Positions 9,165 to 64,000 are shown, counted from the stretch's first letter. The stretch is 64,000 nucleotides of DNA from Psammoneis japonica (GCA_008632985.1 QPGO01000068.1:1-64000); one strand, 5' to 3'. Translations and numbers: made by a program. The notes: generated from the sequence alone by a model not told the origin.

Positions 9165-9223
9165 CGATATATATCGACAGTTTGTGGCAACACTACATTC
9201 GAGAGTAGTAAGTGAGAGAAGCG

Positions 9224-37189: not shown

Positions 37190-37191
<2 letters not shown>

Positions 37192-37287
<96 letters not shown>
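37192..37287. repeat. (TG)n microsatellite running into an assembly gap
   Basis: Pure TG dinucleotide run of about 96 bp. Confidence 0.98.
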
Positions 37288-37447
37288 NNNNNNNNNNNNN
37301 NNNNNNNNNNNNNNNNNNNNNNNNNNNNNNNNNNNNNNNNNNNNNNNNNNNNNNNNNNNNNNNNNNNNNNNNNNNNNNNNNNNNNNNNNNNNNNNNNNNN
37401 NNNNNNNNNNNNNNNNNNNNNNNNNNNNNNNNNNNNNNNNNNNNNNN
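37288..37447. other. Assembly gap (160 N)
   Basis: Run of N. Confidence 1.
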
Positions 37448-39349: not shown

Positions 39350-39570
39350 ATTGCCAAAGCTTCACCTGCAAAGAAGAGAAAAGAGCTTGCAACAGATCAG
39401 AGCATTGCACATGCTTTGTTTTTGAGCGGGCTTGTCTTGACCACAACAGCGCTTCTGCTCACCTTTGCACACAACCATGTCTCTTTCATGTTTTGCACCA
39501 GTTTGCCAAAGCATTGCCTGCAAAGAAGAGAAAAGAGCATGCAACAGATGAGAGCATTGCATTGTTTTGA
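39350..39570. repeat. Short direct repeat pair (about 70 bp, spacing about 150 bp)
   Basis: TTGCCAAAGC..CCTGCAAAGAAGAGAAAAGAGC.TGCAACAGAT.AGAGCATTGCA occurs twice. Confidence 0.85.
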
Positions 39571-40069
39571 ATGTGCTTTGCTCACCTTTGTGTGGCCCCT
39601 GCAGGGCCATCTTCCCTTCCGTCTCCCTTTGCATGTCATCAACATCATGTCTGAGTTGAAAGATTGGCCAAAGCATCAGTTGTTTGCATTGTTGCCCAAA
39701 CTCCGTGCACTCACAGACTCAGTTCCTGCCTCTCTCTTGCTTTGTGTTCCGCATTGTCCTCCTCCCCCTGGTGCTCTTCTGTTGCCTTCCCTTGCTGCTG
39801 ATGTCATTGTCATGATGTTTGATGAGCCTTGTGTTTGGTGTTTTGTGTCTTGTGAGGAAATGATGGCTCGTGTTTTTGCAGCAATGTCGAGCCTGTCTGC
39901 CTGGTGATTCCTGTCAGCATCATTTTTCAAGTGACAATTTTGTTTTAAAATTCCATGCTCACATTCCGTTTTGAAGGTTTGAATGATTTGAAATGACTCA
40001 ATGAATCATCCAGTCATTTGGGTTTTACATGTGTGTCGGCAGTCGGTCAATTTCTCATCTTTCATTGTG

Positions 40070-40172
40070 TCAATGTGTTCTTGTTAAGATGCAAATTTTC
40101 ACAGTCTTGCTGCACAGTTTTCATCACATCAATGTGTTCTTGTTAAGATGCAAATTTTCACAGTCTTGCTGT
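40070..40172. repeat. Tandem duplication with a 59-bp period
   Basis: TCAATGTGTTCTTGTTAAGATGCAAATTTTCACAGTCTTGCTG at 40070 and 40129. Confidence 0.9.
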
Positions 40173-40554
40173 GCAGGTTGAGCTGGCAAATCTCAAGCTC
40201 AATCTCAGCCACAAAAGCTCAGCAGCAGGAGCCCTCAGAGAAACCAAGGCTCTGCTGCCGGAGCTGTTGCAGCACAGGCTGATGGTCCAAACCCAGCAAC
40301 TGCCACCACTGCTGCTGCCTTCACAATGACAAAGCCGCTGCCGACCATGTGAACGCAGGCCTGCGCCACTCTGCCTTCAGCCATTGCAATCTCATGCACT
40401 GGCACAAAGTTCCCATGATTGTTGTTGCATGCCCTGGCACCCAATGGAGTCTCCTCCCACAGCCATCCCAAGACAACTGGTCACTTGCACTGTCACACAG
40501 ATGGCTCAATGGCATCACATGTGCGTTGGCTGGACCAAAGAAGGCCCCAGTCCT

Positions 40555-42750: not shown

Positions 42751-45700
42751 CCAAGTGCCACACTGACACAAGACAAGGCCTTTGCTTCCCGGCCATGGTT
42801 GGTGTTGCATTCTCTGGGACCGGATCAAGTCATCCAAGGCCACCCCAAGACAACAGAGCACTTGCACTGTCACACACATGGTTTTCTTGTGTTTGCAGGT
42901 GGGGTGGCTGGGCCAAGAAACCCAGTCATGTCAGAGAGACAAAGGGCTGCATGGACACAAGACAAAGCCTTTGCTTCCCAACCATTGTTGTTGTTGCATC
43001 CTCTGGGATCCACTGGAGTCCTCCAATGCCATCCCAAGACAGCTGCAAACCTCTTTTGCCACATCTGTGGGCATGGTGCTTTCACACCTTGTGCAGCTGG
43101 GCATCTTGTGTGGAGGAATCATGCAAGGGGCTGCTGCTGCTGCCCAAGACATGGCTCGCAGCTTCCCAAATCAAGATTGCAAAGACACCACACTTGGGTC
43201 AAGAACCCACTCAACAAATGCAGGCTGAGTGCATTTGGGGTGCATGTCATGCAGGCAGCAACTTGCACCAGTGTGCATTGGTTGATGGTGATGATGATGA
43301 TCTGGAGCACCACCACATGATCCATTTTAGTTTCTCAAGTGGCACTGGCCTGTGCATCATGCACCACCACCACCCAGCAAGTTTGTTGCTCCAACTGGAG
43401 ACACCAGCAAGACATGTCATCAAACTTTCCACCAGAGTGAACCCCTTGGAACTGAGGATGTGTGGCTGATGAACTCTGGCCATTGTCTTCATTTGCAGTG
43501 ATGGCAAGAGGGAAGAAGATGAGACATTCTTTCCAGTCTCTGTCAGGACAAGGCATGAACCCGCAAGCAAGAACACTGTGACATTGCTTCCCAAATGACA
43601 TGTGACACAATCCCACCCTTAAAGAAAACTGGAATGTCAAGAGCCACAAAATCACACCTCCAAGGAACAGCAAAATGCCGTGAGTCTTTTAAATGGATCA
43701 CCCAACTTTTCATCGGACAATGCCAAAAACGCCGCGACGAGTCAAAAATCACAAATGATGATGGATCTCTTGCCATTTGCACAAAGTTGTGCTCTAGAGC
43801 AAAGCATTTCAGAACAGTGGCTCTCAATGGAGAGTCCATCCACACTCACAAACCCATGCACTGACCAACTGCACCATCGAGAAAAAACAGCACGTTGGCC
43901 AAAATTCCATTCACAACCTGGCCCACATTTCATCCAACACTCGCACCTCTCTAGACCCAACTAGATGCCAAAAGCTCCAAGATCCAATTCCCCAAACGAA
44001 CAAGTGTCATCAAAGGACTTGTGTCATGTAGAGTGTTGGCATGGAAAGGCCACTTTCAGCACTTGCAGCCCCAGACAATCATGCTGAAAACATGACAGGC
44101 AAAATGAAAATGTGAGTAGAACAACACACACAACAACAATCCATTGAGGCCACATGTCACAGTCTGCTCACTGTGTCACCTTTCCAAGGTAGTTCTGAGT
44201 CACCCCAGCAAATTTCATGACCTCAAATGCCACCAGCGGATCGTTGCATCCACGCATCCAAGAGCAGGCAAGGAGCCCGGCCACACAAGCATCCACTTCT
44301 CCGTTTTGCCCAGTGCAAAACCCAGTCTGGCAGTTGCACTGACAAGATCACCCAAAACAACGTGGGAGATGTTGTGTCTCAGATCATAAAGATGACACGA
44401 TTGTAGAGCAGGAAGAAAGGGTCAAAAAGGACCAGACACCTGCACGCATGAACGAGAGGCACAAAAAAAGGCCCTCGAGGTGTGCAAGTTTCATCAAAAC
44501 AAGGCCAATGCTCAAACAATTGCACTGTGCTCATGGGATTACCTTTTTTGGACTGTGGGAAGGCTGTCTGACAAATGACAACATTTGTTCCCATGGCGTG
44601 CACTTTCAAGAAATTGTTGTTGCCAAAAAATGACATGCTGTGATTGCGAGCTGACCAAGACCTTCAAAAACATGTCAAGCACGTCACAAATCCATGTTGA
44701 TGTGCACAACAGGTGCACCAAAGGATGCAGAGTGGGGTGAGGCACAAGGCTCCCAAACGGATGTGCTGTGGTGGTGCAAATGCCGCAAAAACAACACCAA
44801 CATCACAGATGCAACAATCAACTGCACAAGACAATCAATCCACCTGTGAAGCTTTGACAAAGCACAAACAACATCTTTGGTGAGCATGTGATTGGTGCAA
44901 AATGAGAAAACAAAGAAAGAACTTACCTCTGCAACGTTGTTGACATGGGTCATGTCAACATCATTGCGGCTGTTGGTGTCTGTGGTGTGGTGTGGTGTGG
45001 TGTGAAAAAATGTGCATCCACTGACCGCAAATCAGGCCATGCAGGCAAAAAATGGTCAAATTGTTTGTGACTTGACATTTGTAAAAATGCACAATTAACA
45101 ACTGGACAGAGTTAGCACATTTGTGACAATTTTGTTTGTCAACAAGTTTCACAATCAAATCATTTGTGAATGAGCGTTTCTGAGAATGCATGATCAACAA
45201 GTGAGAACATTGAAGATCGGTGGACAGAGACAGCACGCATGCAACAATTTTGTTTGTCATCAAGTTTCATTCTTGACAAGCACCAAAACATGTTAGAGAC
45301 AGATGTCACTTGGGGCAACCTTGGGCTGACCTGTGCGACATGTTGCAATGCTGCTGGTTTTCTAGACCTCCAGAAAAATTGCAACAACAAATGGATGGCC
45401 AATCTCTGGAAAAGTGGCACCATTGCATCCATGCAACTTGTGTCTGTTGCACCCAAATTTTAAAATGGAAAAGGCCAACGAAACACAGCACATCCAGGCT
45501 GATGCCAATTGTGGCCGCACTCTTCACCATGTGAGTTGGGGGGGGGCAGAGAGAAAGCCTCATTTGAAGCTGCATCAGATTCCAGCTTTCACATCACAAA
45601 CAATTCTGGCTAATGCCGATTGCAGTGATGTCTCTGCTGGGTTGTTGCTCTCTGGATTGGTTGATGGCAAGATCTGTCTGGCTCTGCACGGTCGCACAAA

Positions 45701-47099
45701 ACTCAAGTCGTTTGGTGCATGGTGCTTGCAACAAGAGCAGGGAAAAAGCAAATGCCAGCAATCTCACTTTCTGCTTTGTGACACAAAACAACATGGGTTG
45801 TCAGCCATGGTGTTGTCAATGCTTTCAGCATTGTTGTTGTTCCATGAAAAAAATCCCATGCTTTGACCCACAAAGCAGAATTTTGAACAGAGAAATGTCA
45901 TTTGAACAGACACCACAAGTGAGTTGAATCATGTCCGGCACCTCAGCCACAGAAAATGTGGAAAAAAGGCAGATGAGCACATTCTAGTCAGGCACGGTCT
46001 GCAGCAGTCTCTTCAAAAAGCAGGGTGATCCGACCAAGCAGCCTTCTTGTGTTTTTCATTCTTGACAACAACAACAAATCTTGATGCTTCAGGGCACACC
46101 ACCAAGGCAATGCATTGTTCATCAAGTTCCATCAGATGAGAGCAGCAAGCTTGCAGGTCAGTTTGTCACAACAAGGTGGGGCCCCATGCATTTTCTCATC
46201 AACCCACTCTAGCTGCTGCATCCGCAGAGCATCGCTGGCACAAAGGTGGTGGAATCAAGAGACTGGAGAGGATGAGAATGAACAACAAGAGCACGTTCCC
46301 TCTCTCCCACTCACCGAGAGTTGCCGACAAAGTGTGGCTGGGAGAAAGCTTGCCTGCACATGCTGCCAAGGAATCAGTTGATGCCATGCCACTGTTGCAG
46401 CTAGCAGGATGTCCCTGCTTGTGATGATTCCACCCCCTCCTCCCACAAGTCACTTCCTCCCACAGCCATTTGCCTTTCCATCACAAGTGCCGCCTGCAGC
46501 CTTGTCCCCCAATGCACCAACCACATGCACTGTGCCTCCAGCAATGCTGCTGCTCTTCCTAAAAGTGGTGCAGTGGGTTGCAGATTGCCACAAAACTAAT
46601 TCCATGCCCTCAAATTTTCTGTAAAAAACAAAGAAAGTGAGAAAATTGGTGAAAGCTCCATTGACAATCAAAATGGTGCTAACCTGTCTTGAATCGCACA
46701 ATCAATTTTTTGGCTCTCACTTTGACAAAACCACAAATCCATGATTCTCATCACACAAAATGTGACCAAGCTTGTTGGACAGATTGTGGAAATGTTGTTG
46801 AGAATGAGAAAAGAAACAGGAACAATGTCAATGTTGTGTTCTGTAACTTGCACCAAAGGTGCCATGGTCGATCGACAACCATTGCAATGATGTCGCGGTG
46901 CTTTCAACAAACTGAAGATTTGACATCTGGGTTGCTTTGTGCGCTGAGGTTATTCAAACGGTCACCAACTGGCCCAAAAAATTTGCCCCCACAACTTGTC
47001 ACTTGTTCCTTGTTTGAACAGTGCCATGCCATGGCTTCCTCCATGGGAACGAGTTGAAAGCAAGCCAACTCTCATGCCAATTCTACCAGCAGTGGCCAC

Positions 47100-47984
47100 A
47101 TGAAGAAAGGTTGCGGCGAGCAACTCCTTGATGCAGAGCAGACCGGCGAAACAGTCGGCAGATCATTGGTCAGCAACGCCACCACAGTTTCAAGGGATCT
47201 CATCACAAAGGCAGCCAATGAGGCAGCTCAAATCTGTGTGACATTTGCCGATGTGGCGACCAATGACAACAGCTGCTGTGGACAGGCTGGTTTGATTGTG
47301 GGGTCCAAGATCGCGGGGACTCCGGAGTCAAAGCGGTGCAGGACATCGGTTGCTTTTGAAGACTTTGCCAAGTGCAAAGCTGCTCCCATCACCGCCAAGC
47401 ACAATTTGGAGAGCAAAAATGGCAAAACACACAAATGAGCTGCTTTGCAGTTTGCCCACGGTTTGGACACAGACATCAACATGCCCAACGGTGGGTGTTC
47501 GCTCTCAAACCAGATGATTGTTCGGGCGGCTGCCGATGACAGGGCCGCCCTCAGTTGGGATGACCAGGATGTGTCTTTTGGCAAAATGGTTGACGAACTG
47601 CAAAACTCTCTCATGTGGATGCCATTGCTGTTTTGTAAGGTGCCCCTGGAGTTTCACCTTGAGATTGGCCACAAGATTGGAGTTGCTGTTTTTCAAACCT
47701 TTGACATTGACCACGATGATGCTGGCACCTTGGCTTTGGTTGACTTGTCGTGAGTTTACGACAACAAGATTCAAACCTGTGTCTGCACGGGTGAGGTGAC
47801 AGAATTCTCACCCAACTGCACCACCTTTTGCCACAGCATGAACACTTTTGCTGGCTGTTCTGGGGCGGTCGTGTTTTTGCTCGATCGAAACCAACCTCAG
47901 GAATTTGGGGATTTCCATGGCATGGCGGCAGGAATTCATGTCGGCAGACTAGACGATGACAACAACATTGCCTTTCTGCTTTAA
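47100..47984 (+). pseudogene. Trypsin-like serine protease pseudogene
   Basis: One frame broken only by two TGA stops; ITAKHNL (His), WDDQDVSF (Asp) and NTFAGCSGAVVFLL..AGIHVG (Ser) in the right order. Confidence 0.65.
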
Positions 47985-49149
47985 ACAACAAAAACACGAA
48001 AAACTTGGTGCTGTCAAATGGAACAGCACACAGCTGTTTCGGCAAAACCTGGAATTTGGACTCTTTTGCATTGTTTTTTCTTTCCTTTTTTTCGCACCAC
48101 CACAGCAACCAAATGCAAATTAGTGGCACCAATGTGTTTTCACAGCCAAGCCTTGATGTTGCAAAAAGCACACACATGACCATCTCCAAACCAGCTTGAT
48201 GACACAGGTGCCAACTTGTTTGGGGGAAATCGGCCAAGAAACGAGCAAGAATGGCCAATCACTGGGCTTTTTCGGGCCATGTCTCACCCTTGTCTCAAGG
48301 CATGCCATTTGGCAATTCAGTTCTTTTGTTCAATTCACCAGCTTGTTTTCCTTCTCCTCACTTCTCAACAGTCCCTCACCTGTTGAACAAGCTGGCCCTG
48401 ACAGAGCCTGGCTCACTTCTTGGCTGGATCTGTGTTCCTCAGCACCTGCAGCTTAGCATGCCATCCTCTGCCAGCTTGACCCTGAGCACAAAGGCGGCAA
48501 TGACTCTTCCAGTGGTGAACAGAAGAAACATGAATGCATCCTTGAGGATGACATTTGCCATGTTTAAACTGTCAACATTGCCCCCTTGTTTGTCGGAAGA
48601 ATGACAAAAAAAATGATGCAAGAGTGTCCTGTGGCTGTCAGCATCATGGCAATGCATTCTCAATGCATGCACAATGCTTGCTGCTTGCAGTGCTGTGGCT
48701 TCAGCGGACAAGGGACAGGCATGCACAGCAGGGAGGCAGGACTTCAACAGCCAAGAATGATGGTTGCACGAGACATGAGCATTGTCAATTTCCAAGCAAC
48801 AACAACTGCCGCCGCGACCGCCGGCATTTTCCCCCACACAATGAGCACTTTTTGCTCTTTTGTTGTCCCTTCTGCCATCATGCAACCTTGACACTGTTGG
48901 TCAGCTGTCTAAGGTCATGGACCATTTGACAGCAACTGCAGCAGGCTTTGATTCAAAAAGTGATTGCGATGTGTTCCAGTGTGCAGAACGGCGACAAAAA
49001 CAAAAGCACCCAAGATGTGCAAACCCAAAATTTCCATTTCCAGCACCAAAGGGGACGGTTTCTCACCCAAGGTGGTCAGTGACATTGGGCCTCAGTTTCC
49101 TTGCCTGCCAAAATCTGTGAGACAATGGATCGGAGCACCCAGCCACCTG

Positions 49150-50043
49150 GCGCACATGTGTGATGAAAACTTCTTTGCAAGTGCTGTGGCCATCATGGAA
49201 CTGACCTTTCCAACCACATTTTTCTGGATCCACATTTGTTGGACAGTCTGTGTGGCTGTTCTCTTTTCTGTCCTGCCTGGAAACCAAGCAAGCTCCTGCT
49301 GTGTTGGCTTTCCGGCCTGTGCAGAATCTGTCTTTTTGACCTTGACAGTCTTTGCATTGACCTTCTTTGTCAATCAAGTCTGTGACAAGTTCTTTCAATG
49401 TTTCCATTGGACCATGACAGCACACTCCAATCTGGCATGACGCATTGCAGCCTTGACTGCCGGAGGTGTGGAACTCAAACCTGCTCGTGACATTGTGTGC
49501 CACGCCAACACTGTGGCACACATGCACTGTTGCACAAACATGGATCGTGGCTTTTGTCTTCACCATTGGAAGTTGCTCCAAGACTGGGAACTGCTGACAG
49601 AAACCAAAACTGAGTTGCTTCAGCAACACACAGTGCATTCGCTGCCCGCAATTTTGTTTTTGCAGGCTGTCAAACTGCTCAACACTCACATGCCCAACCC
49701 AGCCGATGCACTGAAGGAGCCCATTGAAGAATGTTTGTGGAGCAGCCGGTCATTGGCCACATGGCTCTACTTTGCACAGAAGCAGATCCCCTGCACTCAC
49801 CACTCAGCCGCCACCTTTGTCCTTCATGTGTGTTCTTGTTTTGCATGACTTTTGATGGCTTTGGTGAAAACTGGTTGCTCTTTTAGAGCCATTCTTGAGT
49901 GGCAAAACCAATTGATGGAACTTGCTGGTGACAGCAAGTGTGCTCCAGGTCTTGTCTTCTGGTCATTGCTCAGTTTTTTGTGTCCTTGTCTTGACGAGTC
50001 TCTGTGTGGTTGCTTTGGCATTGTCAGAGTGGATGGGAAGTGA
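49150..50043 (+). pseudogene. Bestrophin-like membrane protein pseudogene
   Basis: Three same-frame ORF pieces separated by TGA; LTVFALTFFVNQVCDKF, LLTETK and QIPCTHH resemble bestrophin segments with Tyr replaced by Cys/His. Confidence 0.4.
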
Positions 50044-53000
50044 ATGCTTTCATTGCAATCTGGGATTCCACCTTGAGGCCAGCTGGAAGGTGGCAACCGA
50101 AGTGTTGGCATTGGTTGAAGAGGATCCAAAGCCACTGAGTCTACAGGGAACAAGGTTTCCAAGACAATCTTGGAACAGCTGGTTCTGCAACAAAACTGCA
50201 ACAAAAAGAATCTGGCAAAGACCACTGAATGTTGCTTCTTGTAAAGAAAATTTGTGCCATGTGTCGCAGCAAATGTCTGTTGCATCATTGCTTCCAGCAC
50301 TCTTCCTTCATTTGCAGCAACTCCAGCTTGCCATTGCTCCAAAGGACAACAGCAGCATCAGCACCTCTAGAAATGCTGGAGTGACATGGTTTGGCTGAAA
50401 GCTTCTTCCACACAACAACATCTGTTTGAGGAAGCTGGCCACCAGCATTGCTTTGGGTGCACCCATCTGCACACAGACTGTTGGAAACATTGATGGACCC
50501 ATGCTCAAAACTGAGACAAACCTGATCTACACTGCATGTGAAAATGGGATCAGATCCTCTTGATTTTGTGGACCAACAGAAGTTGCCAGCAATGCCACTG
50601 GGGCATTGACATGATCCTTCTCTGTCCCAAGAGCAGCAGTGTGTCTGTTCTGCATGTGCGCAGCTTTCCTGGTTGGTGTCTTTCATGAACAATGGTTGAA
50701 TCTTTTGGCACTTCAGACTTGGGAGATCTGAGACCACAAAAATGTTTTCATCACTTTGCATTGTTGTCAAATGCACTGCCAACAATGTGATTTGTCTTTG
50801 CCTCCTTGTTGCTTTCTTGCCATCACACACAGGGATTGGTGGAGATGTGGAGAATGGGAGTTTTTGTTTCACATTTGCTTGGGCACCCATTTGCTGGCAG
50901 GTTTCACAAGTCAGGGAAATGTGCACTCAAGCTTTTTCAAAGTTGTGTGGGACTTTGGCAGTGGACAAGAAGTGCTGAGATTGTGCAAGTGATGCTCTTC
51001 ATGAGCCTCAGACTTGACATTTTGTCAGCACTGCTTGCTGGGACTCACAAATTGTGACAAAGATGGCAAAAAAGGTGCACCCAACTCCCCATCTGCTGAA
51101 AGGGAGAAAACAATGCCAGAAAGAACCACACCCTGGGAAGCAGGAGTGCTCTGGGAGTGCAGACCTTGCAAACCTTGTCAGTTGTTTTGAAACTGTTGCC
51201 TCTCTTCTTCTCTGTGCATTTTGCCTTTTCAATGAAAACAATGCAATGTTGTTGTCACAGTTGATTGTTGATTGTGGACAGATTGCAGCAACAACTGGCT
51301 GAGCAGCAATGTCATCAAGGGATGATGATGATCACATGTGCTGAGTGACAAATGGTCAGAGGCAGAGTTTGAGCTGGACAAGAAGGCAAGCAAAATTTGT
51401 TTTCTGCTCAAGATTGTGCACAGCTGTCTGAGGGTGCAGAATGTGTTCCCTGCATGTGGACAGGACAGTTCTGGTTTCATGCCTTGGATTTTTGTGCTCC
51501 CAGATGGCCAATGACCAAGTGAAGAAAAAATTGGTTGTTTCAGCGGGGCTCTGTGAACATTGTGATGTTGTCATCTTTGATTGACCCAGCAGTGAGTGCC
51601 TCATCTTGCATGGCCAAGGTCAGCTCATTTGGCAACAAGAGTCATTTGTGTTGTGCATGTTGTGATCTCTCAACTCATTTCATTTTGCCTTTTGCAAACA
51701 AGTTGAGCAGGGGTTGAAAAGCCTCCCCAGAGGCAGACCTCAACTCCAGTTCTTTCTTTTTGAAGATGAGGAAATCTTGTTTGCACTGTTCTTGAGCACC
51801 CATCTGTGTCCATCCTTTTTCAACAACTCCTCAACTGTTTTCACTGAACTCTTGCAACATCCATCTTTGAAGAACTGCCATGCCCTCACACTGAAGATGA
51901 GGGTGGGTGCCTCCTCTCTTGAGGTTGCATGGGGCAGCCGTGCAAAGGATGATGGACGATGTGGCAGGAGACAGTTGGATGCTCCAAAGACAACAGTTGC
52001 AAGTCTCAGATTGTGCACACAACAGTTTGGTTTTGGCCACCAATGTTGTTCTGATTGCTGTTGCTGAGACACTTGACAGACATTTCTGCCTGCTGATGGA
52101 GTGTGCCACTCTGAAGACAGCTGCCAGCAGCAGGTCATCTGTGAGCCAAACTCATGTGGCTCTCCCTTTCAATCAAAAAGAAAAGCAGTTGCCAATCCAC
52201 CAGGGCTCTGCACCTGGTGCAGAACAAACTGGCAGGTGGTCATTGGCAAATTGGCATCTGAGAGTTTTGCAGCAGAGCCAACAGGCTTGATGATCTGGAT
52301 CTTCCAAGTCTCAACTTTTGTGCAGAGTCAGTGGTGTGGAGCACCAATGTGCTTGGCTCTGAGAGTTGATTTTGGTGACATGTGGGCAAACCTGAGACAT
52401 GCAGCATCATTCTCATGTGCAATGGAGGCAGGCAAGTTGGTCATGGGGACAATGGGAGAAGGTTCCGCCCCAGCATTGGTGGACAGGAAGGCCCTGACAC
52501 AAACAGCAACAACAAGTGTGGGCCTGCTCCAACTGTCTGGGTGTGCGAAGATGTGCACATTGACCTCCTTCAGGATCTCTAAAAAAATGGGGACAATGTT
52601 GTGCAGTGCTTGGAGGACAGCAATGCGCCTGACTTCCATTGCAGAAAGTGCTGCCATGAGAGACTGTGGCTTCATCAGAGTGCACAAAATGTTAAAAATG
52701 TGCAGATTTACATGATGACAATTTGTTGAAATGTTGCAAAACATTGTTGTCATGTGATGACAGGCCAACCTCTGGTCACAAGTTTGGTGTGCCAACATTG
52801 CAATGACTTGTTAAGAGTTGTGCACGCTGTTTTTCACCATGTCCACATCACCATTTCTGCCTCCACCTTGTTGCCATGTGCCAATGCGCGATTGCATTGC
52901 CACACAAACCTTGGTTTGTTAATTTTCGCAAACATTGTTTTAAACGAGAAAAACATTTCATCGGCCAAGTCAATTCCTTGTCACATCTGCAGTGCAATGA

Positions 53001-53049
53001 CCGAGTGCTGTGTCAACTGTGTGCACATTTTCTTGCTACAACTCTCTTA

Positions 53050-54290
53050 AACTAAGCCAACAATCATCCTCGGACTCGTCTTCATTGGACTTGTCTTCAT
53101 CGGATTCGTCTCCTCCGTCGTTCGTTTTTCCTTTTGCGCCTTCCTCCTGCTCATCGTCGTCACTGTTTTCGTCCCTGCTGCTCTCCACCATTGGGCTGTT
53201 CATTGCCTTCACCTTCTCCGCATCACCGGTCGGTGCTGTCTTCTTCTTCTTTTTTGCTTCTCCGGACTTCTCTCACTCGCTTTTCTTGATCTCCGCATGC
53301 CACTTTTCAAACTCCTTGCCCTCCTTGGAGTCTCTGTCTTTCGTCACCTCTTTGTGCAAATCGTTGAACTGAATGATTCCGTCGTCTCCCCAAGACACTC
53401 GTTGTTTCTTTGGCTTCGTGTGCTGAGGGGCAGGCCTTGTTTCTTCGGGCTCCATTTCCTCACCCAATTCTTCCACCGCCTCCTCCTTGTTCCTGCATGC
53501 CCACACCTGCCAACAATTCTCCACAGCCAATGGTCGCCAAAGCTTTGTCACCTGCCGCAAACAACTGTGAGACCTGTGCGTTCCCAGTTTTGATGGCGCA
53601 ACTCCATGCCTGCTTTTGCTTGGTTTGAGGTAGGATGTGATCACAGAACCACTTGCACGCCTGCTTGTTCCTTCGTTTACCGCCGGCGACAGTGTCCAGG
53701 CCAAATGGATCCCATGTCGGCACAAACGGGATGTCATTCTCTTCATTCTTGTCACGGCTTGACTTTTTCCTGTTTTGCTTTTTCCTCCTGACTGCCACCT
53801 TGAGTTTCTTTTCTTTTTCCTTTCCCTCTTCCTCAGTGACAATGCCTGCATGGACAAAGCATCACCGTCATCTTCTTGTGAGATGCGCGCAACTCTTGAA
53901 TCACACACATTGGTCACTTGGCTTGCGGGCCATTGCCTCCGCCCCAATGGCCGAACACACCGTGTTTCTGCGATTGTCAATTTGCTTTTTTACCGCCTTT
54001 TTTGCCCATTCCTTCCAAGTTCCTGACCAATTTGAAGTGTCCATGTTGCCACCAGCAATCTGTTTCTTGACAAACATTGAGACGCTCCCATTGCTTGCCA
54101 ATTCTGATGGACTGAGAAACTTCACCTGTGGAAAGAGATCATTTCTAGCCACCTTCTCCACTTCTGATTTCAATGCACCATGCGCTGCCTGCACACCTGT
54201 TCTCTTCAACACTGCCTGAAGTCTCGGGCTCATTGGCTTGATGGTCTCATTTTTCTTTCTCTTCTTTGCCGGTGGTGCTGGAGACAACAT
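53050..54290 (-). pseudogene. Degenerate hypothetical gene (NLS-like PAKKRKK, acidic C-terminal tail)
   Basis: Protein-like pieces in several frames (NDLFPQVKFL, KQIDNRRNTV, Asp/Glu/Lys tail). Confidence 0.45.
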
Positions 54291-55013
54291 CTTGATCTTC
54301 ACACGGCAACAATGAGAGCAGTGTTGCTGTTCAACAGTGCAGCCGTTGTCTGGGTCATGTTGAGACAGCCAGCCACTCCATTTTTCTCTGTGACATTGCA
54401 CAAATTGTTGTCAGCAACATTGAAATTTGAAAATGTGTTTGTGTGTGACAATGAGTGGTCCAACTTGCTTTTTGACATGGCTGTCATTGCGTTCCAATGG
54501 AGACAATGTCCTTTGTTTTGACAGCAAATAAAAAAGAACAACATTTGCTGTAAATGCCAAATAAAAAATCAAAATGCAGACACGTCACACCCACAAGAAT
54601 CATCCAAATCTGGAAGACAATGTGGTGTTTGCCATTTTCCCGCCATTTTTTGCGTGTTGTTCTTCTTTTCCCTTCTCATCCACAAGACAAGGACGACGAG
54701 TGTGAGTCTTGATGAAGGCCCTGTCAACATTGACCAGAGAACTGTGAGGCAACGGCATCAGCATGCAGACTTGGCTGGTCGCTGGCAGCTTGATCACAAA
54801 TGAAACAACTGGCTTTCAATGCCTGAGAAGACTCAGTGCTCACCCAAGTTGCGGGTTGTCCCTGTTGAAGCAATTGGGGACAATGTTTTGGTTTATGAAC
54901 AATGTCCAGGAGCAGCAGAAGCGCAAGAAAAGGCCCCATTTGTTTGGACCACACAGGACAGAAGGAAGTGTTGGTCAGATTTGTTTCTAAAACAGGACAT
55001 GCGTCTGGATCTG

Positions 55014-58000
55014 TCATTCACTCACAGTGATCACCCAACTCTTTCTTGCAAACATGATGAATTTGATCCTTTCAGAATTGGCAAAGTCATTGCGGTGCAC
55101 GTGAAGCAGTGCGGTGCAAGCACCTTCTGTTGCTTTTGTTCTGATGTCTTCTTCGGAAACTCCAAGACAAGCTTCTTCCTGATTGGAAGGCTTTCCCAAC
55201 CACCATTCTCGTTGTTCTTGGGTCACAAGGTTGCTTGCAAAGAATGTGCTCGCACAGCTCTTTGCAGCATCCTTGTCCATTGTGCATGTGTCGAACACAG
55301 CCAACAATTTCTTCCATTGTTTGACAACCTGGAAGAAGGTTGCAAGAGCAAAGGGAATCACCATGTCCCCCCCTTCTTCGTTTGTGGAGAGCAAGGCCCG
55401 AAGATCAATTAGATTTTGGAAAAATTGAGTCGTCCCAAAATGACTGTCATGCCACTCTCCATCTGGCATCCAGCAGCAGTCCAACATGATTTGGTCGAAC
55501 CCATGATTGTCAAAATCAACAAGTTTCTCAAACTGCTGCTTGACTCTCTCGACAAAATCTCTTGCTCTCACATTGCAATTTAAACGCAGATCAGGATGTC
55601 TGTCTTGGAGAGAAACTGTCAGAACGACATTTGTGATTGTTTTGTTAGATTCCTCAAATGCCATTGCGCGGGCCTCGTCTCGCCTGTGTTGGTCGGACGA
55701 CACTGAGGCCACCCCCTTCTCACAGCACAATTCTTGAGAAGACAGTTGCCTTGCATTGAGCGGACGGGTCATCCCCAACCACAGCACATTGTGTGTTTCC
55801 CCGTCAGTTTCGTCACTTGCGAAACAATCTCCTAAGTTGCCATGGTCCTCTTCACCCTCGGAGCAATGTGCAACTTGGTTGTGCTCATCGTCAACAGGCT
55901 CTTCGCTTTTGTCCTCTTCACACATGTAAGTTGTGGGAAGTTTGCTTGTTTTCTCGTCAATTGACTCCTCCTTGCAATCGTCACTTTTGTTCATTGCGAA
56001 TGACAACAAATCACCGGCGGCCTTCTTCCTGTCAGAACAAGAAATCAATGTGACAATGTTGGCACAATCAGACAAAAAACAAATGTGATTGCCATGAAAA
56101 AGTAACCTCTCTTCACCGTTCCAGTTCAGCTCGAACTTCATCAATCGTCACGAGTGGGACTGGCTCCTGTTCACACCTTCCAAACCGCTTGATCATTGAT
56201 TGCCCATCAGAGAACAAGAGCAACAGATGCTGTTCGCAACAAAAGACATTGCAGATTCCCATCTTTTCACGAGCTGCACTCAGGTCACACATCAAAGACT
56301 CTGGGCCATTCTTTCCACAGTCTTCCAAATCAAAATCACCCTCCATCCGTTCCAAGAGCAAATCGCGCTCCTCCACCGGGACCTTCATTTCCTCCACTTG
56401 CTTTGCCGCTCCCAACTTGGCCACCGGATGGACAAGATTGCAAAGGTCAGGGTGAGGATGGATCCCCACGCCACACAGCATCAACATCTGCACAGAGTTC
56501 ATGCATCTGAACTCTCCACAATCAGCACCTGTGTGATCCCATGTTTGGACCACGGTTTGAAACATGTCCTCGATCGCCTTGTGGTCAAACATTGGCTTGC
56601 CAACATTGTCGTTGATTCAGTCAATGAGAACAACCAGTCCGCCAACAAGCAAATCCATCAAACCGTTGAGTTTCGTCCCGCACTCTGCCACATGAACCTC
56701 CTCGAAATTGAGTCCCGGGCTCTGCATGCGTCGGTTGTTGCGATCCCCCGCAATGCTGCCGAACAGCCTTGCAGCTTCTCTGAAGCAATGAAGGACACGA
56801 TCGCCAGCCACGAAAGGACGCTTCACAGCATCTGTGTTGCACAACAAGTGGCAAAAATGGGAGAATCCGGTTTGATGCCCAGCCACAACGGCGCAACAAA
56901 AGCAATCACATGCACCAACCTCATCGAGGTTGTCGATGATTGCCAAACAACCGCACGATAAATCAAAGTCCTTCACGATGGCAAACGGAAGACATTTCCT
57001 CGGCATGACAACAACGGGATGCTTGGCTGTGTCGGACGGAAGATTTGGCTTGCCAATTTCCTCTTCCACCCACACAGAGTGAGGGTCAAGGAAAAAATCT
57101 TTGATGTTTCTGTGGGTTGGCTTGCCCGACGGAGGACAATGAGGGCCACGGCATCTCATCATTTCTGCAGCACATGACAGATCAAGTTTTGCGAAATGAC
57201 CATGCACATGCGATCGGAACTCGGCATGCCCATGCACTGAACTGACACAGTTTCCAGCATTGCCTTTGGATGCAGTGATGACCTTCAACAACCAAGAGCG
57301 ACCAACAGCATCTCGCAGTGACGAGCAAAGAGCACCAGTCTTGGTGTGCCCATCCATGTCACAATCCTCTTTGTCAATGTGCAGCTCGGTGTCCGAATTG
57401 ATGGATTTTTTGCCAGACAACGAGATGCACTTAACTTGAATTTCCACGCCTTCCCTTCTAATGTGCTTGGCTCCAACCATCTTGTGGAGCTCAGCCGCGA
57501 AAAGACTGTCACGGTGCGGGTCATGGAAGGAATGCATTTCTTTCAATGCAACAAGATTAATTTCATCCTCGCAGAGTTGCGCGGCGTCCAAGATTGAGGC
57601 TGTCATCACCTGCACATCCTTTGGAAGCTTCTCTCACTTGTCCCTGCCAAAGATGGCACCAGGCTTGTGAGCAGGTCCCACTTCAGCTAACTCACCGTCT
57701 GCGACTTTGCAACTCTGGCCACAATGACCAAAACAGATCCGACAGCGCAACTTGCATTCTGGTCCATCCCTTTTTTCGTTCGGCTTGCCATGTTCCAACA
57801 CTGCACGGAGCATCGACGACACACTGAATTGCAATCCAAAAAAGTGTTTCTGATGCATCTTGTCCATGTGTCGCAAATGAGTGACCGCGTCGGAAAAATG
57901 AGAGGTTGACTGGGTCGGGTGAGCAATCGCAACCATCGATTCTTGCGTCGGATCATTGGGAGCTGTGCCGTTTTCAAATCCATGCATGAACTTGCAGAGG

Positions 58001-58278
58001 TGATTCACCAAGTGGAAATCGGAGATGCTGTGGAACAACTGGTGCTTGACACAGTTCCCCTCAAAGGAACCGGAAATGGGGGTTTCCTCAAAGACGACAA
58101 AGTGAGAATGTTGTGACTTCACCTCACCCGGAATCGCAAACGGAGATGGTTCAGGAAACACTTTCACAAGCTCTTCTTTTGTGAAATTGTCTGGCGGAGG
58201 AGGAGGCGACTGATGAGTTGCACCGAGGGTCGGCCACTTTGTTTGGGAATGTTCAAATTGTTCCTTGAGAGTCGGCAC
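55014..58278 (-). pseudogene. Large degenerate gene: possible HxD dioxygenase-like region and C-terminal methyltransferase-like region
   Basis: 58278-56113 is one frame with TGA at 57634 and 56617; the overlapping ORF 56144-55014 follows in another frame; motifs ELHIDKED and VLWLGM...FDQIMLDCCWMP...GGDMVIP. Confidence 0.5.
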
Positions 58279-58400
58279 ATCTTGGAGAATCAGCGATTTG
58301 TTCTGAGAAACATCAGAAGGTTCACCATCTTTGGGGTTTTTGAGATGGGCTTGAGGAGCAAAGGGAGGCGGCTAAAGAGGTGGCAAGAAGAACAGAAGAA

Positions 58401-59551
58401 TCAGAGATGAGAAGAGGAGCACAAACAATCAATCAAACAATGTGGTGGATTTGCGCCATTTGGATTTTTTCGTTTCCGAGCATTTTTCGTAACGGATGGA
58501 ACTGCATTGCCGATTTCTTTCTTCTTGCACTTAGTGGCAAAGTCACGAAGCCTGGCTTTCCACACAGCCTCAAAACGATCCCTTGTGGCCTTGCTTTTGC
58601 CGGAATCGTCAGCAGCAGAAACCACATGATCAATTTTCACACATCTTAAAAGAGTCTCATCGACATGTGTTGCGTGCATTTGTTCTCGCTCGACATTGAG
58701 CATCGCCAGTCGCATGGGCTGTCCCCAAGAATGTTTGTGTTGGCGGAACAACGACTTTACGAATTCAGGGAAGGACACAGGGCATTTGTCTTTGGTTGTC
58801 TCACAGTGACCAAGAGCCAGGAAATTCTCCAAAAAGTTGATGTAAGTTGATGTCTCGTCACATTCGCCGAACAGGGAGCACAGCCAACAATTGCAATCAC
58901 CATTCCTTTCAGGTGCGCACGGTGGAATCTTGTCACGAAGAATCAAAAAACCAATGTGAAGGCATTGCGCGCAGTGCAAAACCTTCCCTTCAAAACTTCT
59001 CAGCTCAATGTGCTTGACAAGTGGCTCTCCCTTTGGGTCGCACAATCCGGGATCATGGAGAAGCTTGCACAACATGGAAATCTTTGCCATCATGTTGGTT
59101 GCAATGTCTGTTGATTTTGCCTTGTCGCCGATGACTTTCACATCCTCTGCTTTGGGAGCACGGCGACACTCCAACGCATGAGGATGTTTGGCGCCTTGAC
59201 TGGAACAACTCCATCCTTTTGCGGAAAGAAAGTGCAGCAAGCTCTTGTGCCCAAGTTCCTTTGCAACAATGCGGTTCACAGCCATCAGTTCTGCAAAAAA
59301 ATGAGGTCTGCTCTTCGACTTTTGCCACACATGGGCAAGCGTGATCCAATTTGGAGAGGGATCACAAGTGGAATCGCGGTGAAACTGAACCTTGGATTTC
59401 ACCGTCTCGATTGTCGCTTTGACACGGCTCCGCTCGTTGCTGTTGATCACTCCAAAACCGTTGGCAAAGAGAGATTCAAGTGCGGCCTCCTCGAGGCAGG
59501 AATCATTGTTGTCTTGCAACAGAGAGGCAACCGACAGGTCACGCGGCGCCA
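58401..59551 (-). pseudogene. Degenerate hypothetical gene (about 380 codons from MAPRDL)
   Basis: Long protein-like ORF, nearly Tyr-free, co-oriented with the neighbouring degenerate genes. Confidence 0.45.
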
Positions 59552-59978
59552 TGGTTGCTGTTCCAACACCAAAAAATCTGGTTTCTGTAGAAATGCACCA
59601 GAGTGGTGTGTGGGAGAAGTTGCATGCGCGCCTGGCGCAATTTGGAGTTTCAAACACAAAAACCTGCCAGATGCGCGCGCAACTTCTCCCAGGGAAATCC
59701 TGCGTGAGATTGTGCCGGGAAAGGGCAATGCAGAGTGTAGAATTGATGGAAGAAAACATTGATTGGAACAGCATCAGGAGAAAGGATGCATGTGCTGGAA
59801 AACAACATGGATTTCTACACACGCATTGAGGCACGTGAAAAACACGTGGGTGCCTTCAAGTGATGCATGCGAACAATCACAAAGAAACATCCGGAAATGG
59901 AGATGGCACAGAGAGAAGTCAGAAACATGGATCCAAAACAAAGTGACACAACAGAAAAAACAACAACAACAACAAGAG

Positions 59979-60380
59979 ATGAAGGCGACGGCGACGGGAT
60001 CGATGAAGAAGAAGGATTCAGATGGAAAGACGCCGGAGACGGTGAAAACAGGCGGTGCCAAGACGAGGAAGGAAGAGAAAAACAGGACGGGCAAAATGAA
60101 GAAAGACAAAAAGAAGCCGACAACACGACGTCAAGAGGGGAGCAGCGATGCGATTCAGCGTTTCGAGGGACCTCTTCCTCTCGATGATGTTCACCCAAAT
60201 GCAAGAAATGCAGTGTGGCTTTTTTGGAACGGTGACGAGGAAACATCCAACGCGGCAGCGGCACATTTGAAATTCTTGCAAGAGAGCAGACAAGACATGT
60301 GGAATGAAGAGGACGATGCGGACGACTGGGCAAATTGGAGCACAGTTGTTGACCAAACAATTGGTGCACACTTCACATGA
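59979..60380 (+). pseudogene. Small degenerate hypothetical gene, divergent from the minus-strand cluster
   Basis: Lys-rich then Trp/acidic segment (AVWLFWNGDEE...DDWANW); no TpA seen. Confidence 0.3.
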
Positions 60381-63117
60381 TGAAAATTTCATTGCATGCA
60401 ATTGCAATGTTTGGCTTGTCGTCAAAGATCGTCAGTTGTTGTGAAAAAGGCAGAGCATGAAAATTAAAAAACATCTGTGTTCAAACATGAAGAACAGCAG
60501 GAGATTGATGATTGACCAAATGACAAAGACCATCATGTGCAGACAAGCAGATTTTACAATGCAGCAATGCATTTTTGTCATGTGTGCAGACATTGCCATG
60601 TCGTGCACTCTGATGTTCTTGGACACCCAGACAATTGGGCATGTCTTGTGTGACTTGACAGAAGTTCTTGGGTCCTGCCCATCTTCCACTCAGAACAAAC
60701 CTTGCATGAAACCCACATCCACATGACACAGTTGAGATGATGATCCATGAAGAACACCAAATTCAGGCCCACAACAGCAGCGCACATTCTTCAAGCAACA
60801 AAGAGCAAGCGCACACTTGACAGGAGCACCAGCACACATGAGGCCTTGGGAGCAGAAAAGAACCTGGCAACTTTGTGGGTGGCATGTGCAATGACCAGAT
60901 GACTGTTGGGCATGAGATGCATCAGCACACAGCAGCCACAGAAGGACAGCCATGGGGTTCATTAACAGGCACGAAGCTGTTAAAGTCATCACGCCAATGG
61001 GTCTGGGAAGGGCAGGAGCAGGTGTGGTCCATTGCAGCAGTCTTCCATCCTGGTGACATGCAATGCTTTCTCAATCAGGCCAGCTTGGGTCAGCAGAAAT
61101 TGGCCATCACTTGGACAGTTTTTGGATTTTGATGCCAGCAAAAAGTTGCCAACCTCACTGCCCTTGTCTCTCACAGATCACAGACATCATGGCCATGCTT
61201 CTTGTTGGAGACACCCAACTTGGGAGCTTCTGAGCTGGAGATTTTGCTGGCAAAAGCAGCACCCTTGTGTGGCACACACAACACACCCTTCTTAAAATGG
61301 AAACAAGGGTCAACATTGGACCAGACCCACAGCCAAGCTCAAGCAATCCATTGCACAGCTTCTCACAAAAGCACTTGGGTGCTGGTTGTTGGAGTCCACA
61401 CCACAAGACTTTCAGAAGCTTTGGTGGCAACAAAATGTGGAGGCCAGGCTTGTGGCAGTCAACCCATTGGCTGCATTGCCAAGCTTGAGGAGCCATCCTT
61501 CAGAGGGACTGACAGAGGCCAGGCAAAGTTGTTGACATCACAAAAGATGGCCCTCAAAGCACCAGCATCACAAACAGCTGCATGTGGTGCTGTGGTCATG
61601 TGCAAGACTCAACAAGGCTTGGGAGTTGGCAGCAAGGCCCTCATGCAAGAGTTGACCCACAGGAACCAGTGCAGAGAGGTGGGGGGTTGGATGAGCAGCA
61701 GTTCTGTCTACAGCCTCTCAAAAGAGGTGTTCAGGGACCTGCCAGATGCCAGCATCAACCAAGCAAAATTGGTGAACAGCTCACCAAAGCAGAGGCAGCC
61801 AGGTGACAACTCTTCAACTGGACATCACAACAGTGGACTTGCCTGTTTCTTGGCACAGTGGGTGGCCAAGGAGAAATCATCTGTTTTGTTTCCATCAAAG
61901 AAGGGGATGGTGTCCTTGAGAAAAAAGGTGAGCTGCACAATGACACGCAGACTGACAGGGCTTGGCATCCCAGAGCTGCTAGAGCTTCTTGCCAAGGCAA
62001 TGGTCAGAATTGCACATCACAAACTTGGCAAGTGCTTGGCAGCCCTCAATCTTTTTGCACTCACACAAACTGCTGCGAGGGTCTGAGATCCTTTCTGTTG
62101 CCCTTGCAAACCCTTGCAAAGTCTGTGAAATGGCATCTTACAAAAATGTCAGAAATGATGTGACTTTCTGATTTTTGACATCTCTGAGATTGCCCCTGGT
62201 TTTTCATTCATTGTGGTGAGAGCTGTGAGATGTGCAGATTCTTGCTGCAATTTTTTTCACCTCCACAGCAAAAGGCATGTTCTCACAAGCACTGGCAACA
62301 GCACTGACAGAAAATGCAAATGTTGGCCATGCTCATGCAAACTCGCCATGTTTTTTTTTGTCATTGTCTGCCAGAGGTTCTCAATGCATTGGTGGCAAGG
62401 AGACCAAGGGGGGGAGAGGCCAGAAGTTGTTGCTGTTTTGTGCTGGCACATCATTGATGGCATTGAACAAAGAGAATCATCACACAAGCACTCTCATGCA
62501 AGGTGCGCTCTTTGGGGCCTGTGCAACATGCTGAGTGCTTCCTTGCTCACAGGAGAATTTGCAGCTGTGTTTAGAGTGCCTCCCCACATGCCATGGAACA
62601 TCTGCAAACTGCATTGCACCCACATTTTAAGCCCACCAACAGAGTGAAAAGGTGAAAATTGGTTGCATGGGTGCTGCACAGCATTGTTTTTTGGGTGCTC
62701 TCATGTTTTCTTTTGGCGCGCATCACATGTGGTGTGTAGAGGGCACTTTGTTTGCTTTTTCAAAGCTTTTGTTGAAGCCAATGTTGGCACTGTTTTTGAT
62801 TTCCTGCTGCAGAGCCAGAGCTGCAATGCATGGCATGTCAACTTTTAAGAACCAAGAGCAGCCTTCCTGATTTGTGTTTGGGGTGCTCACACGGCACAGG
62901 AGCTCACATGCCAGGTGGCAACAAATGCAAGAATCCAATGTTGCTCATCAACCACAAGGGTTTTCCAGCCATCAATGTCCAAGTGCTTGAAAATGCAGCC
63001 CCAAACTGTCAAATGTTGGGCACCCAAGCACTGCAAGAAATGCTTGCCATGGCATTTCTTGGGAGCTGTGCTTGACAGCCAAAAGACAGGAGAATGAAAT
63101 CTGAGTCAAGTGTTGTG

Positions 63118-63720
63118 TCACAGAGGGGCACTGCTGCCCCTCATTGGATGAGGCTGATGATGGCTGTGGCAGGGCAAATTGGGTTGGGTCAGGCACTGGG
63201 CTTGCAGAGCATGAGCCTCACAAGGATGCCTTTGGCAGCTGTTGTCTGAACAAAGGCTGTCACAGCCAATTTCATTGAGTGCATGTGGGGCAATGTCCAC
63301 CAGAAGTTTGGATGTGTTTGTGTGCCTCCATTGTGCAGGTGCCCCATGGTGATTCAAGCACTTGTTCATCTGAACAATTTTGGGACACTGGCATTGTTGA
63401 TGACAATGAGCCACACCCCTCCAGTCAACACTGGACCAGATCAGTGCCAACAGGGTGAGCCACTTCTGCAGCAATGTCTTGTTCTTGCATGAATTGAGAA
63501 GGGAGCTGGTGGGATTTGGCAGGATCTCTGCACGAAGTCTTGCTTTTGTGCAGTGAAAAGAGTGCTCAATCCCAGAACACAAACCCTTGGCACAACAACT
63601 CATGGTGGCTGCCAAAATGAAATGATCAGAAGGTGTGTTTGCTTGGACAAGGCCTCCATTTGCTTCAACAACTTTGCCAAAAAAAAGGAACTTGGCACAC
63701 AGCTGTGGTGTTGCGCGCAC
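63118..63720 (-). mobile_element. Possible remnant of a non-LTR retrotransposon C-terminus
   Basis: IWSSVDW...KIVQMNKCLNH...C..C pattern weakly resembles the post-RT region of LINEs; heavily mutated. Confidence 0.25.
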
Positions 63721-64000
63721 ATGTCAATGCCAACTTAGATCTGCTTCTTGAGTTTTGAGGTGCAAAAACAACAGCAGTGATGTTGGAAAGCACTGGTTTT
63801 GCTTGTGGATGACAATGTTGTTGCCACTCTTGTCTCTGTTGCAAAACATGCAGTGCTTCTGGAGCAAACCAGGGTGGCCTTTTGGCAAAGGTGCTGGAGG
63901 GCTCTTTGTAGAGCAGAGGGTTGCTGAGAATCTCAATGACTCAAGAATCCTCTGCTGGGCTCCAGCTCTTGGAAGTGCTGAAGGGTTGCTTGTCAATGTG

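Follow-up and report, generated by a model that had tools for sequence, protein, structure and literature searches.

We analyzed a stretch of 64,000 nucleotides of DNA from the diatom Psammoneis japonica (GCA_008632985.1 QPGO01000068.1:1-64000), called the window below, in which the dinucleotide TpA has been nearly erased from several sharp-edged domains. The block on which we concentrate, at 53000-60420 in the last of these domains, is TpA-free yet CpG-rich. Positions 1-27000 are gene dense and ordinary: by dinucleotide counts, CG occurs at 1.01 times and TA at 0.59 times its expectation (observed over expected, or o/e), and TA sites in gene-rich DNA lie 24 bases apart on average, with a longest gap of 221. 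The best named relatives of a host protein from the window are all from diatoms (Helicotheca, 56%; Amphiprora; Stauroneis; Seminavis, 48%; and Epithemia); the collection searched has no close relative of the host. Beginning at about 27 kb, TpA-depleted domains occupy 27.1-29.7, 33.4-35.3, and 36.6-64 kb (Table 1). These domains hold 2.5-5 TA per kb versus about 40 per kb in normal DNA, and CA and TG are raised to 1.5-2.0 times expectation. AA and TT show no depletion (o/e 1.2-1.3; 1.27-1.31 for AA), the G+C content stays at 0.45-0.52 in the window, and the genes between the depleted domains have a normal composition.

Table 1. Features of the depleted domains and of the repeat copy, in window positions (a dot means that no strand applies)
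Feature	Coordinates	Strand	Remarks
Separate TpA-depleted island	27100-29700	.	3.2 TA/kb vs 40/kb next door; between normal genes
Second TpA-depleted island	33400-35300	.
Decayed duplicate of a host gene's 5' part	34654-35392	+	70% identity to the normal copy at 26450-27149 (~700 bases)
Remaining TpA-depleted domain, a mosaic with graded CpG loss	36600-52699	.	Includes the 185-base satellite
185-base satellite	40553-42743	.	11.7 copies, 371-base higher-order period; inside a TpA-free domain
Left flank, older single-copy DNA in which TpA and CpG were both lost	50000-52699	.	Contig depth 68, 0 differences
One copy of a multi-copy repeat, ~7.8 kb	52700-60530	.	Ends are where the single-copy contigs stop (52699, 60530)
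Block: sub-domain that is TpA-free yet CpG-rich	53000-60420	.	CG 291 (o/e 0.67), TA 32 (o/e 0.06)
Low-CG stretch inside the block	54001-55000	.	CG share of pyrimidine-purine dinucleotides 0.06-0.08 vs 0.11-0.26 in the rest of the block
Five decayed coding remnants (377, 167, 338, 245, and 484 aa)	55014-59855	-	Pieces of open reading frames
Open reading frame remnant homologous to metagenomic protein P0001	58401-59855	-	61% identity, E 6e-137
Right flank, older single-copy DNA in which TpA and CpG were both lost	60530-64000	.	Contig depth 64; 3 differences over 60530-63311

An initial annotation of this DNA had described 53.0-60.4 kb as keeping abundant CG with TA nearly absent, between flanks that have lost both, and the counts bear this out. 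Besides the CG and TA listed in Table 1, the block has 730 CA (o/e 1.52) and 662 TG (o/e 1.49). The left flank (50300-52700) holds just 7 CG (o/e 0.05) and 4 TA (o/e 0.02), and the right flank (60700-64000) holds 14 CG (o/e 0.07) and 12 TA (o/e 0.06). In 59880-60400, which had been cited as a stretch with many CG and no TA, we counted 28 CG and 0 TA. Among pyrimidine-purine (YR) dinucleotides, the block far exceeds the flanks in CG (odds ratio 13, Fisher p 7.9e-54), so the CG depletion of the block is not equal to that of its surroundings; for TA there is no difference (Fisher p 0.14).

The block is one copy of a multi-copy repeat, lying in older, now single-copy, diverged DNA. We compared the window with contigs from one public sequencing run that match the stretch; this run may be the assembly's own sample, so its agreement with the window is not independent support. 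Two further runs covered next to none of the stretch. The summed word depth of the contigs, which is not a copy number and which we read only as "many copies," is 3,601-29,526 in the bins that cover 52802-60740 (and still 10,102-14,540 in the low-CG stretch), 5,872 in the mixed edge bin at 52335-52801, and 64-112 in the flank bins. The 5,862 contig pieces that lie over the block include 1,280 that are at least 99% alike, 1,644 at 95-99%, 2,281 at 90-95%, and 657 below 90%. Across the ~7.8 kb of the repeat, we found 344 variable places, of which 316 are transitions, in contigs that under-report dense variation and whose coverage is incomplete where variable sites crowd together. Over 2.8 kb of the single-copy right flank, the sole differences between the assembly and the contigs are three adjacent transitions at 60990-60992 (CAC vs TGT). 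The triple suggests two alleles or strains in which one ancestral TA/CG pair was resolved in different ways; if so, the process acted recently.

At the ends of the repeat, 19-mers at 52673-52691 and 60597-60615 are 89% complementary and form a candidate degenerate terminal inverted repeat, and there is weak inverted similarity over 79-190 bases besides. A search for a target-site duplication at the block ends found none, and comparing the ends after collapsing them to purines and pyrimidines gave matches in polypyrimidine tracts only. A 33-base stretch of the block had no match in metagenome contigs, and relatives of the block were not found in viral contigs.

The initial annotation also stated that long open reading frames (ORFs) survive in the block. 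DNA without TA cannot carry TAA or TAG stops, so longer ORFs arise by chance: in shuffles, the mean maximum is 214 amino acids (aa) for TA-free DNA versus 163 aa for normal DNA. The block's ORFs of 484, 377, and 338 aa exceed those in all 300 dinucleotide-preserving shuffles (largest, 375 aa), and we therefore consider them to be genuine coding remnants. However, the reading frames are broken by stops and shifts and are nearly free of Tyr; what survives is dead. Two in-frame stops split the pieces at 56113-56616, 56617-57633, and 57634-58371, and the adjacent pieces lie in other frames. The stop at 56617-56619 (minus strand) is a TGG>TGA change that is private to this copy: 5,276 of 5,350 in depth have C at 56617, which gives TGG (Trp), so most copies have a longer open frame. 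Together, the five pieces (1616 aa) have 2 Tyr, 83 His, and 81 Cys, as compared with 2.1-3.5% Tyr in host proteins. Within the depleted DNA, recognizable ORF remnants are restricted to the block. Because it is multi-copy and still has such remnants, the block is probably the youngest piece of the depleted domain.

The ORF remnant at 58401-59855 has one close relative, the metagenomic protein P0001, which itself has 73 further, more distant relatives. All 74 representatives of the P0001 family have an ordinary Tyr content (0.6-5.2%). For the confident structure model of P0001 (predicted template modeling score, pTM, 0.76), Foldseek found nothing at E <= 0.001, and VIA-align nothing above Z 3.7. 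Pfam gave no match for P0001, and 14 relatives that were scanned have no domain that explains the shared region. We considered a DUF2828/TROVE identity (Atlas score 0.88, low recognition), but Pfam scans of 29 family members gave no support for it. Searching metagenome contigs with P0001 for the DNA of relatives returned nothing. The ORFs of the block had no match in a Pfam scan, two of them had nothing significant in a sequence search of PDB, and a search for longer relatives of the 338-aa ORF was negative. The remnant at 58401-59855 is the best preserved ORF of the repeat and represents, with the P0001 family, an uncharacterized mobile-element protein whose model has no match in PDB.

TA was originally present in the depleted DNA and was then converted. 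At the 19 Tyr of P0001 that are aligned to the block, the block encodes 10 Cys, 4 His, 3 Phe, 1 Tyr, and 1 Ile; the Cys and His at 14 of the 19 sites imply conversion of TAY codons to TGY or CAY. In the decayed host-gene duplicate (Table 1), which includes the promoter region as well as the gene fragment, there remain 0 of the 12 TA of the normal copy (6 became TG and 4 CA) and 2 of its 26 CG (12 became TG and 5 CA); the other dinucleotides are 44-77% unchanged. In the satellite, the units are ~80% alike and differ largely at CA, TG, and CG doublets: one column reads TTTAAG, TTTGAG, or TTCAAG depending on the unit. Such differences indicate that conversion occurs in place. The sum of TA, CG, CA, and TG, from dinucleotide counts, is about 238 per kb in normal DNA, 246 in the older depleted DNA, and 231 in the block. 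Furthermore, when we simulated context-dependent conversion of TA and CG, and no other change, in normal DNA, we obtained the 2-, 3-, and 4-mer spectra of the older DNA (r = 0.99, 0.97, and 0.96); without conversion, the same comparison gives 0.86, 0.61, and 0.62.

Both losses depend on the neighboring bases. We measured survival as the observed count relative to the host's k-mer composition, which assumes that the repeat began with that composition. Survival of TA is lowest in ATAT (0, of 118 on the expected scale), ATAG (0), ATAC (0.005), GTAC (0.01), and ATAA (0.06), and higher in CTAC (0.09), GTAA (0.14), CTAG (0.20), CTAA (0.26), and above all TTAA (0.74). Considered per strand, survival of the T of TA is 0.01-0.02 when the base before it is A, 0.05-0.07 when it is G, 0.125 when it is C, and 0.21-0.26 when it is T. 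This profile is identical in the block and in the older DNA, which implies that TA is at its floor in both. The products CA and TG are balanced between the strands and are not clustered (runs test z, -0.9 to 0.07). For CG, the two kinds of DNA differ. In the older DNA, CG has been lost in every context (per-strand survival, 0.13-0.26; GCGC 0.42 and CCGG 0.31). In the block, per-strand survival is 0.58-0.59 after A or T versus 0.83-0.87 after C or G, and by tetramer it is 0.23 for ACGT, 0.36 for TCGA, 1.03 for CCGG, and 1.36 for GCGC; that is, CG between two A or T bases (WCGW) was lost first. Overall, ACG and TCG were lost equally in the block (survival, 0.586 vs 0.584).

One patch inside the depleted domain, at 38839-39159, has 11 TA in 320 bases. 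Nearly all of these are in TTA or TAA, the resistant class, so the patch fits the context rule and is no exception to it. Also in this domain, a perfect (TG)48 microsatellite abuts a scaffold gap of 160 N at 37288-37447 (the region is 37192-37447); alternating pyrimidine-purine tracts that undergo both conversions would yield TG/CA repeats of this kind.

We also examined the 40 best-supported differences between the window and the contigs of the other copies. At 13 of the 40, the window has TG or CA where the other copies have CG, and 10 of these 13 are at TCG (p 0.002). The reverse, CG in the window and TG or CA in the others, occurs once. TA in the other copies with CA in the window occurs twice, both times in slow contexts (TTAC and TTAA). 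The list also has 5 CA/TG doublets, 10 other transitions, 1 transversion, and 3 that make up the CAC/TGT triple of the flank. The CG decay of this copy is private, and it is about one-third complete. More broadly, across 55 windows of 500 bases from 36.5 to 64 kb, the TA share of YR dinucleotides is always 0.073 or less (normal, 0.172), while the CG share is graded from 0 to 0.26 (normal, 0.239). None of these 55 windows has lost CG but kept TA.

These results agree with the proposal in the initial annotation that TpA is lost first and that CpG follows. They also show that TA loss can be separated from CG loss: in the block, 83-87% of the CG preceded by G or C is kept, while TA is already at the floor seen in the older DNA. 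The further claim that two separate processes are at work cannot be proven from the window alone: one enzyme with two rates would fit too. Two processes are nevertheless likely, because the context rules and the timing differ and because a TpA process that runs almost without C>T changes exists in another organism, the chlorarachniophyte alga Bigelowiella natans.

A preprint (Mettrop et al., bioRxiv 10.64898/2026.01.13.699255) reports that, of 302 nuclear mutations in mutation-accumulation lines of B. natans, 231 fell in two integrated viral regions, at a rate of ~6e-7 per site per generation, and that 230 of these 231 were A>G or T>C, every one at TpA. Of the 15 lines, 11 had such mutations. 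In the genome, 124 clusters of windows are poor in TpA and rich in CpA plus TpG, the TpA-poor coding sequences are enriched for transposon domains, and an ADAT2-like DNA adenine deaminase was proposed. As changes on TpA came almost without C>T, a TpA process without cytosine deamination exists. The resemblance to our window extends to the change itself (A>G or T>C at TpA, on either strand, giving TpG and CpA), possibly to its restriction to blocks of non-host or silent DNA with ordinary genes spared, and to the long-term signature of clustered windows in which TpA is scarce and CpA plus TpG is abundant. Here, changes of the A>G/T>C type account for 14 of 19 Tyr sites and 10 of 12 TA in the duplicate, and 316 of 344 differences between copies are transitions; the restriction to TpA is seen in a TA o/e of 0.02-0.07, CA/TG at 1.5-2.0, undepleted AA and TT, and the fit of the simulation. 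There are differences as well. B. natans is a rhizarian and P. japonica is a stramenopile; TA is far more depleted here (o/e 0.02-0.07 vs a Rho of 0.45 in the region from a nucleocytoplasmic large DNA virus); and what is hit here is a high-copy repeat, a satellite, and a duplicated gene fragment, of which none is recognizably viral. CpG decay accompanies the TpA loss here, and the flanking-base rule is ATA > GTA > CTA >> TTA, while the main text of the preprint analyzes neither CpG nor flanking bases nor diatoms. Finally, the rate was measured in real time there, and here we read a long-term signature from the DNA.

The reading that we favor, with a probability of roughly 55%, is that a young copy of a high-copy repeat sits in older DNA and that silent DNA in this genome undergoes a fast TpA-specific process and then a slower decay of CG. 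The first process would change A:T to G:C, turning TA into CA or TG on either strand. It would act most strongly with A or G 5' of the T (ATA and GTA, or equivalently TAT and TAC) and most weakly at TTAA, would run to a floor of ~5% of normal TA, and would erase Tyr codons as well as TAA and TAG stops. The second process would convert CG to TG or CA; it would have removed about one-third of the block's CG, mainly at TCG and ACG, and ~95% of the CG in the older flanks. Since the first process would saturate long before the second, a young copy would look TpA-free and CpG-rich. The window itself shows which way both changes ran, how each depends on its context, that the block is multi-copy between single-copy flanks, and that CG losses are private to this copy. 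By analogy, the first process may be the same kind of enzymatic hypermutation as in B. natans. The second is presumably driven by cytosine methylation, and the difference in CG between the block and its flanks probably reflects age.

Several observations weigh against this reading. Just 2 of the 40 top differences have TA in the other copies, and there are just 344 variable places in ~7.8 kb; with so few of either (and with contigs that are incomplete where variation is dense), a large part of the TA loss may be common to the copies, either because it predates the amplification or because it was steered by context. The CG flanked by G or C in the block (CCGG, 1.03; GCGC, 1.36) shows no loss at all, and CG loss that is so bound to context exceeds what is expected from plain deamination of methylcytosine. 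Lastly, the repeat has no Pfam or fold match that would indicate its type.

Other explanations start from the same observations. If the block were as old as its flanks but unmethylated or weakly methylated, its CG would have been spared while TA was lost everywhere. The full retention of G/C-flanked CG would suit this, and some diatom transposons are unmethylated and the methylation machinery varies, according to PMC9998398. Yet the flanks are single-copy and the block is present in many copies, with numerous pieces that are 95% or more alike; ORF remnants are recognizable in the block only; and the private changes of CG to TG or CA at 13 of the 40 top differences indicate that this copy was not protected. 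We consider equal age unlikely. The few TA differences among copies raise another scenario, in which TA was lost once, in the founder of the repeat (perhaps edited as an invader), and the TA-free element was then amplified, so that only CG decays copy by copy. It would explain why just two top differences, both in slow contexts, have TA in the other copies, and why the 344 variable places are few compared with the ~300 former TA sites expected. At 56114/5 and 56168/9, nearly all of the depth has the doublet opposite to the window's, which also favors a founder. Against a founder, a family without Tyr codons is unlikely to have encoded working proteins, the satellite units and the gene-fragment duplicate show conversion in place, context bias alone would resolve independent copies alike at many sites, and the contigs under-report dense variation; we consider a founder event unlikely.

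We hold it about as doubtful that a single promiscuous ADAT2-like deaminase acts fast on the A of TpA and slowly on the C of TCG and ACG, which would reduce the two processes to a difference in rate. An amphioxus ADAT2 does deaminate both A and C in DNA, with TCG as its cytosine motif, but its adenine motif in Escherichia coli is GAA rather than TA (PMC10354150). In the window, the location of 10 of the 13 private CG losses at TCG and the early loss of WCGW (TCGA and ACGT survive at 0.36 and 0.23, CCGG at 1.03) would fit such an enzyme; the equal overall loss of ACG and TCG and the loss of CG from every context in the older DNA, including GCGC and CCGG, do not, nor does the B. natans process, in which 1 change in 211 was other than A:T>G:C (bioRxiv 10.64898/2026.01.13.699255). 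TpA loss could also be a by-product of the repair of deaminated 5-methylcytosine (5mC), if the patch made at a T:G mismatch by an error-prone polymerase hits nearby A:T pairs. The model for this is antibody hypermutation, in which A:T pairs mutate at WA motifs (W, A or T). The two losses do occur in the same domains, and faithful repair could keep CG while TA erodes. But WA includes AA, which is undepleted; TA has reached its floor where CG between G or C bases is undiminished; and the B. natans process (same preprint, main text) runs almost without C>T, all of which makes a repair by-product very improbable. Even less credible is a sequencing or assembly artifact, such as misread modified bases: this is a draft assembly with a scaffold gap at 37288-37447, but the contigs agree with the flanks (with the reservation about the sample given above), the genes in the same window are normal, and the changes come with frameshifts, in-frame stops, and amino acid replacements, as in real decay.

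Among known systems of mutation other than that of B. natans, repeat-induced point mutation (RIP) of ascomycetes changes CpA to TpA and makes DNA AT-rich. Like the decay seen here, it is saturating, sharply bounded, and limited to transitions, it strikes repeated or foreign DNA, and it ruins reading frames. In the window, however, TpA is destroyed, CpA and TpG are created, and there is no AT enrichment (G+C, 0.45-0.52). Also, the normal copy of the duplicated sequence, at 26450-27149, keeps its 12 TA and 26 CG, although selection could mask its mutation. We therefore rejected fungal RIP, as TpA is lost and not gained, G+C is unchanged, and one duplicate copy is untouched. Diatoms carry RID-related DNMT4 genes of unknown function, and DNMT5a methylates transposons in diatoms (both from PMC9998398).

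Decay of methylated CpG resembles the second process: CG becomes TG or CA in repeats, to a degree that is graded between segments and private to copies. Such accumulation is visible here in the CG share of 0-0.26, in the 13 private losses, and in 17 of 26 CG in the duplicate. The difference is that loss in the block is confined to CG flanked by T or A, with 10 of 13 private losses at TCG. As for the ADAT2/ADAT3 enzymes, the amphioxus protein BjADAT2 shows that one fold can deaminate A and C, and its TCG motif matches the CG lost first here; but besides its GAA motif, it prefers hairpin loops (PMC10354150), and it is not known to be linked to repeats or to diatoms.

We rejected RNA editing of the ADAR type followed by retrotransposition, because both products are balanced (CA 730 and TG 662; Cys 10, His 4) and unclustered by strand, and because conversion reached not only retroelements but also a satellite and, together with its promoter region, a duplicated gene fragment. 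Very short patch (VSP) repair is known to deplete CTAG in E. coli. We dropped an analogy with it: the loss here is fast and saturating and is not bound to one methylation motif. A search of the diatom literature on thymine oxidation, of the 5-hydroxymethyluracil (5hmU) or base J type, found nothing, and the idea is speculative. We also searched the literature on TpA loss in diatom repeats and found no report.

So far, the defense of genomes by mutation has been a matter of deaminating cytosine, as in RIP, APOBEC, and the decay of methylated cytosine. Defense by editing of A:T at TpA was first reported in 2026, in one alga. The window would be the long-term end state of such a process in a diatom, from another major lineage and a group of great ecological weight, and at one locus it gives evidence that the loss of TpA runs ahead of that of CpG and is independent of it. 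More tentatively, at somewhat less than even odds, diatoms may share with B. natans a regulated, TpA-specific DNA-editing defense, an old system across stramenopiles, alveolates, and rhizarians (SAR) that hits invading or repeated DNA first and quickly. Its rule would be the T of R-T-A or the A of T-A-Y (R, purine; Y, pyrimidine), with TTAA nearly immune; it would kill genes through the loss of every Tyr codon, and the decay of cytosines would be slow and separate. If so, the defense would not be an oddity of chlorarachniophytes, and the flanking-base rule, which in any case constrains the candidate enzymes, would be a fingerprint with which to identify the enzyme. On the practical side, dead repeats without TA are a hazard for annotation, as they show long, Tyr-free ORFs rich in His and Cys that gene callers may accept. 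Used jointly, TA o/e and CG o/e could act as a clock with two speeds by which to date insertions in genomes of this kind.

The borders of the smaller islands are abrupt. At the first island, the last TA is at 27091, and the run of TA resumes at 29751. Between the two islands, at 29910-33038, lies an uninterrupted ORF of 1043 aa for a helicase of the Upf1/Sen1 type (AAA_11 and AAA_12) with normal composition; thus, the mutated domains end within about 100-200 bases of a live gene. At some domain edges, CG persists for 50-230 bases past the last TA. We did not rely on this, because the stretch at 27108-27287 is promoter-like and TA-poor by composition. This stretch, just upstream of the gene at 24860-26962, is dense in CpG and free of TA, with 24 CG in 180 bases, and its core is nearly unchanged in the duplicate, at 35352-35393, where most other CG have been lost. 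It may be a protected promoter element.

In the larger domain at 36600-52699, a Pfam scan of 41 ORFs (of 70 scanned in all) found no domain. The gene-rich part of the window includes an intact Ty1/copia element at 8828-14678, with ORFs for gag (with a zinc knuckle), integrase, and reverse transcriptase. Its long terminal repeats are 98.6% alike, and its TA and CG content is normal, which fits conversion in place. Two of the four differences between the long terminal repeats are GTAT/GTGT and CA/CG, which are both of the change types found in the decayed domains. Finally, a host ORF of 981 aa at 3385-6330 joins glutaredoxin, DUF4395, an anion channel of the SLAC1/TehA type, and a hemerythrin domain, and the same layout is found again in many diatom proteins.

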